From Candidatus Heimdallarchaeota archaeon (GTDB lineage Archaea > Asgardarchaeota > Heimdallarchaeia > Heimdallarchaeales > Heimdallarchaeaceae), in NCBI GenBank assembly GCA_030603365.1, contig JAUVXV010000010.1:79925-143924 (forward strand): DNA of 64,000 nt. The letters are read 5' to 3'. This document shows positions 13,954 through 16,125 of this stretch, piece after piece. The first letter of the stretch is position 1. Each line of letters opens with the position of its first letter. Position numbers and translations under genes: made by a program. The notes beneath the pieces are model-generated. The model was not told the origin of the DNA and made no database searches. It saw only the letters and a program-made list of their open reading frames with translations.

Positions 13954-14937
13954 ATGCAATGTGAACATCCCCAGTGCAATACTGAAGCAGATATTTTATT
14001 CTACTGTCGATTCTGTAGAGGGTCCTTTTGTCAGAATCATAGAGATGCTCATACTCATAACTGCCCCTCGCTCAGTCAACCAAGTCAGTCAACACAAGGG
14101 GCCCAACCAGGTGCACCTCAGGGTCAAGTTAGAGCAGCGGAAGTTATGCGAAAAATAGCTTATGGTGTTGCTCAAGCTGCTCAACAAGCTGCTCAACAAC
14201 AAGCTCAGGCTCAGCAACCTATGCACTTTCCCGATGAGAAGAGTAAGAAGGACTTTATTGCAAAAAGACTTACTTCTTCAGGTGAGCTATTTTCTTTAGG
14301 AAATGAGGTATTAGACATACTTTTTGGTTTTACATTAATAGTTCTTGTTTTTGGTTTTTTCCAATATATCAGAGCTACAGAGAATAGATGGTGGGGTTTT
14401 GCTATTGCTGCAATATTAGTAGGTACCGCTTTCTTACCTCACGAATTAGCTCATAAATTTGTAGCCATCAGAAAAGGACAGTTTGCTCGATATATTCTAT
14501 GGGTTAAAGGAATGTTGTTTACAATGCTCACGTTAGTTTTAGGAATTGGACTAATTGTCCCAGGTTTTGTAGCAATAGTTCCTATGAGTCGTCAAATGAA
14601 CAAAAAAGACATAGGCTTGGTTTCATTTGCGGGACCAGCAATAAATGCAGTAATAGGATTTGTTAGTCTAATTATCGGTTTCTTAACTTATAGTGGCTAT
14701 GCTGTTGGATTCGCAGGTCCTCTAGCTCTTTATGGTCTTTTTGGTGTTCCTAACATTTTCATCCTTGTTGCGCAGTTTAATGGTATTATTGCTTTATTCA
14801 ACTGTATACCTGTTTGGCAATTAGATGGTAAGAAAATCCTTAGTTGGAATAAAATGGCTTATTTTATACTTGTAGCAATCAATCTTGCAATTGTTATTCC
14901 TACATTTATCCTAAATCCAGGTTTCCTATCAGGGTAA
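13954..14937 (+). CDS. AN1-type zinc finger fused to M50 (site-2) intramembrane metalloprotease
   Basis: C..C...C..C...FC..HR...H.C; HELAH, AGPAIN, NCIP...LDG. Confidence 0.9.
   Translation: MQCEHPQCNTEADILFYCRFCRGSFCQNHRDAHTHNCPSLSQPSQSTQGAQPGAPQGQVRAAEVMRKIAYGVAQAAQQAAQQQAQAQQPMHFPDEKSKKDFIAKRLTSSGELFSLGNEVLDILFGFTLIVLVFGFFQYIRATENRWWGFAIAAILVGTAFLPHELAHKFVAIRKGQFARYILWVKGMLFTMLTLVLGIGLIVPGFVAIVPMSRQMNKKDIGLVSFAGPAINAVIGFVSLIIGFLTYSGYAVGFAGPLALYGLFGVPNIFILVAQFNGIIALFNCIPVWQLDGKKILSWNKMAYFILVAINLAIVIPTFILNPGFLSG
14170..14217 (+). repeat. Imperfect GCTCAA/GCTCAACAA tandem repeat encoding an A/Q linker
   Basis: Direct inspection; encodes AQAAQQAAQQQAQAQQ. Confidence 0.7.
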
Positions 14938-15002
14938 GTGGATAAAATCATTTTCTTTCTTCTTTTATTTTCTATCACAAAAGATAATTATGAGTAATTT
15001 AT

Positions 15003-15076
15003 ATGTGATTAGAGGATGAACAAGGCATTGCAGAGAGCTTTCGCTCTATGATGAATCATAGTTAGGCTGATAACAT
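15003..15076 (+). ncRNA. Box C/D methylation guide sRNA (double guide, 23S rRNA domain IV)
   Basis: C AGGATGA 15013-19, D' CAGA 15031-34, hairpin GAGC-TTTC-GCTC, C' ATGATGA 15048-54, D CTGA 15067-70; guides complementary to AAUGCCUUG and UAACUAUGA. Confidence 0.85.
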
Positions 15077-16125
15077 TAAATTTTGTCTAAAATCTTATGC
15101 CTTTCTTTTTTTAATTCTTCTAAATTACTTATGTTAAGCATTGCCAATACTGCCTTCATTTCAAGGATGTATGTTGATAGGAATTTTCTACAATCATCTA
15201 TTCCTCCCTTTCCAATGGATCTCAGAATTGGTAGAGCTAAACCAACATAATCTGCTCCTAGAAGTAAAGCTTTTACTGCGTCAAATCCACACCACACTCC
15301 TCCTGAAGCTATAAGCTTTACGCTTTTATTCTCAGCTAATTCAACTGCATTCAACAGACTGTTTTTCGTAGATATTCCCCAATTAAGAAACTTATCAGAA
15401 AGATATTTTACTTCCTTATTACGATAATATTCTATCCGGGACCAATTAGTCCCCCCTGCTCCTGCAACATCTAGAGCATAGATTTTCAATTGGGTTAAGG
15501 TTTTTGCATCTTCTTTTGTTAACCCCGTTCCTACACCTTTAATGATAATAGGAGAATCCAATTCTTGTTTAAGATCCACAATTTTCTTTAGAGCTTTTGA
15601 TTGATTTTTGTCTCCTTCACCTTGAACAAACTCTTGAAGAGGATTGATGTGGATAGCTAAAGCATCAGCTCCAATCATAGTAATAGCTTTTTGTGCTTGT
15701 ACATGATCATATCCTTGAATAAACTGAGCTATTCCTAGATTTGCAATGAGTGGGATATTTGGTGCGATATGCCTAACCTTGTAAGTATCGACAAGCTTTG
15801 GTTCTTCAATTGCAGCTCTTTGAGATCCAACACCCATACCTATATTGAATTCACTACAAATTCGTGCAACAGATTCATTGAAAACCCTACCATTTTCACT
15901 TCCTCCAGTCATACCTGAGACTATGATAGGGTAGTTTACTTCCTTAGATAGGAATGTAGTAGATAAATCGACTTCTTCTGAGGAGAATTGTGTTAGTAAA
16001 GTAGGCTCAATAATTATATCATCAAAACCATTTGTTATTCCACTGTATTGAACATCTGATTCTAAACAAAGTAGAATATGGTCATCTTTCCTAGAAGAGG
16101 TTAATGATGAATCCGTCTGTTTCAT
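15076..16125 (-). CDS. fni: Type 2 isopentenyl-diphosphate delta-isomerase
   Basis: RKDDHI, SGMTGG, GVGSQR, HINPLQE, DVAGAGGTNW, ASGG. Confidence 0.96.
   Translation of the reverse strand: MKQTDSSLTSSRKDDHILLCLESDVQYSGITNGFDDIIIEPTLLTQFSSEEVDLSTTFLSKEVNYPIIVSGMTGGSENGRVFNESVARICSEFNIGMGVGSQRAAIEEPKLVDTYKVRHIAPNIPLIANLGIAQFIQGYDHVQAQKAITMIGADALAIHINPLQEFVQGEGDKNQSKALKKIVDLKQELDSPIIIKGVGTGLTKEDAKTLTQLKIYALDVAGAGGTNWSRIEYYRNKEVKYLSDKFLNWGISTKNSLLNAVELAENKSVKLIASGGVWCGFDAVKALLLGADYVGLALPILRSIGKGGIDDCRKFLSTYILEMKAVLAMLNISNLEELKKERHKILDKI

Follow-up and report, generated by a model that had tools for sequence, protein, structure and literature searches.

A probable box C/D guide sRNA of Heimdallarchaeaceae predicted to direct two neighbouring methylations in 23S rRNA

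As a rule, archaeal box C/D sRNAs carry two guides directed to neighbouring targets. The described double guides of Pyrococcus (sR RNAs), Pyrobaculum and Sulfolobus have a symmetric layout with guides of 10–12 nt, are directed to neighbouring sites in one rRNA and form an RNP with L7Ae, Nop5 and fibrillarin, and their C′/D′ motif is usually closed by a K-loop of 3–9 nt. Helices 68, 69 and 71 (H68, H69 and H71) of 23S rRNA are hotspots of archaeal 2′-O-methylation, with dense predicted sites around A1912 (Dennis et al. 2015, PMC4644070). One RNA from S. acidocaldarius, Sac-sR113, carries the guide CTCAGAGTTACT before CTGA (Dennis et al. 2015, PMC4644070, supplementary file 1). Working from the printed sequences, we found that this guide pairs with its own H69 (GGUAACUCUGAC) in such a register that the nucleotide opposite the fifth guide base upstream of box D (N+5) is A1913 in E. 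coli numbering. The same H69 adenosine is the target of the eukaryotic C/D guides snR63 of yeast (25S Am2256) and SNORD46 (U46) of human. These RNAs are longer, are bound by Snu13, Nop56, Nop58 and fibrillarin, and direct no further methylation to the equivalent of G1940; to our knowledge, yeast G2283, which is that equivalent, is not a listed 2′-O-methylation site. A1913 belongs to intersubunit bridge B2a, where it lies beside the A-site tRNA and contacts h44. Asgard guide RNAs are essentially undescribed: full-text literature searches found no paper describing Asgard C/D sRNAs, and the RNA reported here may be the first described Asgard C/D guide.

The window, by which we mean the whole stretch of 64,000 nt that was analysed, comes from a Heimdallarchaeaceae genome (G000) of 3.65 Mb in 17 contigs with 33% G+C and a completeness of 89%. 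A preliminary description of this DNA had proposed a complete double-guide box C/D layout with guides of 11–12 nt, and direct reading of positions 15013–15070 of the plus strand confirmed it. In 5′ to 3′ order, this segment contains box C (AGGATGA, 15013–15019), an 11-nt D′ guide (ACAAGGCATTG, 15020–15030, with the core ACAAGGCATT at 15020–15029), box D′ (CAGA, 15031–15034), an internal hairpin (GAGC, loop TTTC, GCTC; 15035–15046), box C′ (ATGATGA, 15048–15054), a 12-nt D guide (ATCATAGTTAGG, 15055–15066, with the core TCATAGTTAG at 15056–15065) and box D (CTGA, 15067–15070). Box C departs from RUGAUGA at a single position, U2 to G, and both of its GA dinucleotides are intact. Both internal boxes, C′ and D′, are present, and the spacers of 11 nt (C to D′) and 12 nt (C′ to D) fall within the 10–12 nt range of archaeal C/D sRNAs (PMC7994747). 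In contrast to the canonical archaeal double guides, box C reads AGGAUGA in this genus, and the C′/D′ motif is closed by a conserved, covarying hairpin of 4–5 bp (13-nt spacer) instead of a K-loop. The host also differs in having a mesophile-like, AT-rich genome in which our scan identified only two clear double-guide sRNAs.

That scan used a relaxed regular expression for the full C–guide–D′–C′–guide–D layout. It matched the 3.65 Mb genome once, at 15013–15070, where our own rough estimate of the chance expectation was about 0.1 matches. When one mismatch was allowed in each of three boxes, 33 loci were recovered genome-wide, and both guides matched rRNA in two of the 33, namely the sRNA at 15013–15070 and a second sRNA on contig C1. 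Half-mer guide candidates were found at eight other loci of the genome, compared with 4.65 under a shuffled-guide null. As this number is close to the null and most of these loci lie within long open frames, we rejected them as further guides.

The sRNA occupies a 138-nt gap between two protein-coding genes. The upstream neighbour (13954–14937, +) encodes a membrane protease with zf-AN1 and Peptidase_M50 domains (Pfam), and the convergent neighbour (15076–16125, −) encodes a protein with an FMN-dependent dehydrogenase fold (Pfam FMN_dh, 3.8e-23). The latter gene is probably fni, encoding type 2 IPP isomerase, and its stop codon is located 5 nt past box D. Upstream of the sRNA is a promoter-like element, ATCACAAAAGATAATTAT (14974–14991, +), in which a purine-rich BRE-like stretch is followed by the TATA-like sequence ATAATTAT. 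Among 27 distinct Heimdall homologs the spacing of the consensus ATCAAAAAAGATAATTAT was constant, its last base being about 22 nt before box C, and the intervening 22 nt were unconserved. This motif looks like an archaeal BRE/TATA promoter, and the position of its TATA-like element predicts a transcription start at about 15011–15015. The 5′ limit had previously been set at 15003; because the promoter-like element would put the start at about 15011–15015, the first ten nucleotides are probably outside the RNA. A proposed terminal stem between 15003–15006 and 15073–15076 was rejected, as only 41% of the cells of this helix (helix 1) were paired in the Heimdall copies; its 5′ arm is probably upstream of the transcript start. 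At the other end, a run of four T residues (15081–15084, +) that falls within the 3′ end of the convergent fni gene is a possible archaeal termination signal, judging from its sequence. We consider it quite probable that the locus specifies an archaeal box C/D sRNA, about 58–70 nt long, that is transcribed on its own.

The core of the D guide, TCATAGTTAG, is complementary to the H69 loop of 23S rRNA (CUAACUAUGA, E. coli 1910–1919) over 10 contiguous Watson-Crick pairs. Here T15062 is the N+5 base and its partner is the second adenosine of UAAC, A1913 in E. coli; the numbering of H69 was fixed by the landmarks ψ1911, m3ψ1915 and ψ1917. Since yeast ψ2258 corresponds to E. coli 1915 (PMC2794176), A1913 is equivalent to yeast Am2256, the target of snR63, and the equivalent nucleotide is methylated in human as well (PMC2794176). 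The core of the D′ guide, ACAAGGCATT, also forms 10 contiguous pairs, in this case with AAUGCCUUGU (E. coli 1937–1946). At its N+5 position C15026 is paired to G1940, which lies 27 nt downstream of A1913.

These pairings were established with the host's own 23S gene as far as it is assembled and with those of its congeners. The own gene (C8:14-2006, −) breaks off at the contig end with ...GGAGCTAACTATG, so that it is cut inside H69 at ...GCCGGAGCTAACTATG (E. coli 1918), and no other contig of the genome matched its 3′ part. In the assembly the 23S gene lacks its 3′ third; the 16S gene (C8:10098-11577, −) is situated about 8 kb upstream on the same strand, so that the two rRNA genes either lie far apart or have other genes between them. 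As far as the own H69 is present, all of its bases (9 of 9 up to the contig end) can pair with the D guide. With the own sequence ending at E. coli 1918, the D′ target was deduced from congeners. Five complete 23S genes from the same genus read GCTAACTATGAGC...AAATGCCTTGTC (full stretch GGAGCTAACTATGAGCTTCTTAAGGTAGGCAAATGCCTTGTCTGC) and provide 10 contiguous pairs for each guide. For the D′ guide, this pairing was seen with the 23S of G003, G008 and G009, each of which bears an identical guide. Furthermore, nine genomes contain both genes, and in all nine the D guide has 9–11 contiguous bp of complementarity to the genome's own H69. Complementarity of at least 9–10 bp with a paired N+5 base was therefore observed for both guides, for D against the partial own and the congeneric 23S and for D′ against congeneric 23S only. 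The probability of finding a random 10-mer of the genome's composition in 16S plus 23S is P=0.0043. A match of both guides with a spacing of 27 nt goes far beyond what chance would produce. The preliminary description had predicted the H69 loop as the D target, with A1913 (yeast Am2256) at N+5, and a G at about 1940 as the D′ target, and had asked for a match to the host 23S; pairing and numbering bear out both assignments, and the host 23S agrees over the nine bases available. Its remark that adjacent double targets are typical of archaeal guides also agrees with the known archaeal sRNAs.

The sRNA is conserved well beyond this genome. BLAST identified it in 21 of 24 congeneric genomes and also in the family's other genera; the three members of the genus in which it was not found are 78–89% complete. 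A covariance model built from 27 distinct copies and searched over the class recovered it from 27 of the 30 family genomes and from one genome (G086) of another Heimdallarchaeia family, f7. An exact pattern comprising C′, the D guide and D was found among 400 Asgard genomes in 25 of the 30 genomes of the own family and in 7 of the 89 genomes of a Thorarchaeota-type family, and the reversed-pattern control gave no matches in the same 400. Two matches in f3/f4, both without a C′ box, were rejected as chance. The named records that contain the sRNA are from Heimdallarchaeota (including Ca. Heimdallarchaeum endolithica PR6, Ca. H. aukensis PM71 and AB_125) and Thorarchaeota. Together with kinship tallies, these records place G000 in the family of endolithica PR6, aukensis PM71 and AB_125, and the Asgard host assumed in the preliminary description is correct. 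The order M50 gene, sRNA, convergent fni was kept in all family copies while the flanking proteins drop to about 50% identity, and the position beside fni to which the preliminary description had pointed is thus conserved across the family. The copies in Thorarchaeota and in family f7 are found in other gene contexts, and they combine the shared H69 guide with differing D′ guides. In one genome of the genus (G010) the sRNA occurs twice with identical sequence on two contigs (C23:16549-16570 and C27:19846-19867); the locus could truly be duplicated, the bin could contain redundant strains, or the assembly could be at fault.

Across the alignment of 27 homologs the flanks vary freely, while TCATAGTTA and the boxes stay constant except for position 2 of box D′ and variants of box C′. 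The D guide sequence TCATAGTTA is unchanged in 27 of 27, box D is CTGA in all homologs, and GATG is invariant in box C, which sister genera carry as the canonical ATGATGA or as GATGATGA. Nearly every homolog has TGAYGA as its box C′; G006 and G086 have TGAAGA. Box D′ is CTGA in most relatives, with CGGA and CCGA found too; it varies at position 2 only and keeps its terminal GA. The hairpin between D′ and C′ is supported by covariation, with 96.3% of its cells paired and changes on both sides in three of its four pairs. The compensatory variants are GAGC/GCTC, GAGT/ACTC, GTCT/AGAC and GGAC/GTCC, and the hairpin of G086 is CCATT/AATGG. The minimum free energy of the RNA showed no extra stability over that of shuffled sequences (z=0.25); an unremarkable fold energy is usual for C/D RNAs and gives no support.

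We did not find the sRNA in the sister families f2–f6 or in five complete Loki-type genomes, the latter with a differing H69. H69 reads GUAACCAUGAC in sister family f3 and GUAACUAUAAC in the Loki-type family f20. No guides compensated for the f3 or f20 sequence were found, and this test of guide–target covariation, the most powerful one available for covariation, gave nothing. In lineages with another H69, the RNA seems to be absent or present in an unrecognised form. A comparison of the 23S genes at L027–L031, L035, L126–L129 and L152 showed that the H69 closing pair is reversed in all lineages that bear the sRNA relative to their relatives, C1910–G1920 (CUAACUAUGAG) instead of G–C (GUAAC...GAC); guide position 2 (G) pairs with C1910 of this reversed closing pair.

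The genome also encodes the proteins of a C/D RNP. Genes for fibrillarin and Nop5 are adjacent on contig C1 (PF01269, 305 bits, and PF01798, 226 bits), and a gene for L7Ae is present (PF01248, 92.7 bits), which completes the L7Ae/Nop5/fibrillarin set of a C/D guide sRNA. In our model, the C/D and C′/D′ motifs would fold into kink-turns, the internal one closed by the 4–5 bp hairpin and not by a K-loop. L7Ae would bind both kink-turns, a Nop5 dimer would bridge them, and two fibrillarins would methylate the nucleotide paired to the fifth base of each guide. The D guide, paired with the H69 loop, would place the methyltransferase on the 2′-OH of A1913, and the D′ guide, paired in the H70/H71 region 27 nt downstream, would target G1940. 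The predicted products are Am1913 and, in this genome, Gm1940. By holding both nascent 23S segments together, the RNA may also help domain IV to fold, acting as a chaperone. The motif layout, rRNA complementarity, conservation, hairpin covariation, synteny and protein genes were observed here; transcription, RNP assembly and both methylations are inferences. The locus is very probably that of a real small guide RNA predicted to direct two nearby methylations in 23S rRNA.

Homologs from Thorarchaeota-type genomes were found at L041, L047, L067, L075, L082, L085, L093 and L122–L125. They keep the identical H69 D guide and an internal hairpin and have a clear 6-bp terminal stem; their box C ends in GATGT or GATGA, and their D′ guides vary. 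The D′ arm has a different history from the D arm. In Heimdallarchaeum and in most of the genus, its guide points at G1940. The guide has degenerated in G028 and in a subclade that comprises G001, G004 and several named MAGs, although the 23S genes of G001 and G004 retain the D′ target. The D′ guide of one Thor genome, G323 (TCATTTGGCTAG), is complementary to UAGCCAAAUG over 10 bp, which shifts the predicted site to C1934, and several further Thor copies combine degenerate D′ boxes (TTAG, CTAG) with complementarity of 6–7 bp only. Because the H69 arm is invariant wherever the RNA occurs while the D′ arm drifts, retargets or decays in several lineages, the selected function is the H69 interaction and the H69 arm is the selected one. 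Guide evolution is visible here, with one arm frozen on H69 and the other sliding along adjacent rRNA or decaying, and decay of the second arm leads towards a single-guide RNA as in eukaryotes.

The behaviour of the D′ arm could also mean that the sRNA binds pre-23S mainly or only as a folding chaperone, or that it acts through its D arm only, the D′ arm being inactive or decaying in this genome too. Besides the loss or replacement of the D′ guide in G001, G004, G028 and several other Heimdall species, the unchanged 23S target of the first two and the degenerate Thor D′ boxes, one may cite the non-consensus CAGA that serves as the own D′ box after an 11-nt spacer, and guide–target pairings without methylation have been discussed in the literature for Pyrobaculum. 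However, the guides of this genome and of most congeners have a perfect 10-bp D′ match with a paired N+5 base in congeneric 23S, and the D′ box varies only at its second position, where variation is tolerated. Moreover, the D arm is fully canonical, with its C′ and D boxes and 12-nt spacer. We consider such a restricted function unlikely and favour a guide RNA in which both arms would direct methylation.

The preliminary description had called the A1913 modification eukaryote-type, which overstates the case, as Sac-sR113 points at A1913 too and H69 is an archaeal hotspot (PMC4644070). The site is common to eukaryotes, at least one crenarchaeon (by prediction) and the Heimdall and Thor lineages, and it is therefore not eukaryote-only. 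Like the Heimdall sRNA, Sac-sR113 is an archaeal C/D sRNA whose D guide lies on the H69 loop with N+5 at A1913. It differs in that its guide letters follow the crenarchaeal H69 (CUCUG vs CUAUG), its C′/D′ spacer is a short loop where the Heimdall sRNA has a hairpin, and its D′ guide has no match to the H70/H71 region. The Heimdall sRNA is thus of an ordinary kind, and neither its mechanism nor its target is new to archaea. As the mechanism is the textbook one and the target had already been predicted in Sulfolobus, the present data refine the picture and do not change it. They do lead to the prediction that Heimdall and Thor ribosomes carry a 2′-O-methyladenosine in the H69 loop, as eukaryotic ribosomes do.

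A relationship to snR63/SNORD46 had also been suggested. As a functional analogy this stands, in that the target is the A2256 equivalent; similarity to the family models was not found, and the guide letters in common follow from the conserved target. An Rfam search at gathering cut-offs and at E≤10 returned no family for the sRNA, and SNORD46/snR63 was absent from cmscan output at E≤10 both for 2 kb and for the 96-nt stretch alone. Only generic C/D families appeared, at 9–14 bits, far below their cut-offs. A far-reaching version of the relationship would have an ancient Asgard family of H69 Am1913 guides inherited by eukaryotes as snR63/SNORD46, with Heimdallarchaeaceae having a near-minimal C/D set on bridge B2a and the decoding centre; we regard this as decidedly unlikely. 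The narrower reading, in which the sRNA is the direct vertical ortholog of snR63/SNORD46 and an H69 Am guide is older than eukaryogenesis, could account for the shared target nucleotide (yeast Am2256 and its human equivalent), for the presence of the RNA in two Asgard classes and for the H69 loop UAACUAUGA of these Asgard lineages, which is identical to the eukaryotic loop. However, nothing past the target-dictated guide is similar in sequence or structure, the distribution is patchy, with no copy found in f2–f6 or in the five complete Loki-type genomes, and Sulfolobus sR113 uses the same register, so that the data can be accounted for just as well by convergent evolution towards a hotspot or by a pan-archaeal origin. 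Orthology to the snoRNAs of eukaryotes is possible but unsupported, and we judge it very unlikely. That the locus holds no guide RNA at all, being a chance cluster of motifs or a cis element of the M50–fni region such as a terminator or a 3′-UTR structure, is extremely improbable, because the position just past the M50 gene and 5 nt from the fni stop codon, the fold energy no better than that of shuffles and the lack of an Rfam match are outweighed by conservation that tracks the boxes and guides exactly and not a terminator hairpin, by two guides that both match rRNA, by copies in other gene contexts in Thorarchaeota and f7, and by the promoter-like element of its own.

The second canonical double-guide C/D sRNA of this genome is located outside the window (G000:C1:514267-514350, +; locus L153:68-151). 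It consists of gcc-AATGATGT, the guide ATTTGCAACGAC, CTGA, TAAT, TGATGA, the guide TCGACTTTTGG and CTGA-ggc. Its D′ guide pairs over 10 bp with the own 16S sequence GUCGUUGCAA, with N+5 at E. coli 1409, and its D guide pairs over 9 bp with CAAAAGUCG, with N+5 at E. coli A1492. Both guides are invariant in 24 of 24 genomes of the genus. The two sites face each other across the strands of h44, at its top within the decoding centre, and adjoin the docking site of the H69 loop; in the assembled ribosome this loop touches the nucleotides 1409 and 1492 (E. coli numbering).

H69 is also the neighbour of an insertion in three relatives from the same order (G035, G033 and G037; loci L026, L028 and L036). 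In these genomes the 23S gene is interrupted directly 3′ of H69 by about 800 nt, the insertion site reading GGGAGTAACCATGACTCT[C] / insert / CTTAAGGTAGCC at about E. coli 1923–1925. The insert, which contains an open frame with a LAGLIDADG-like motif (VDGKGSF), probably represents an rRNA intron of group I type that carries a homing endonuclease.
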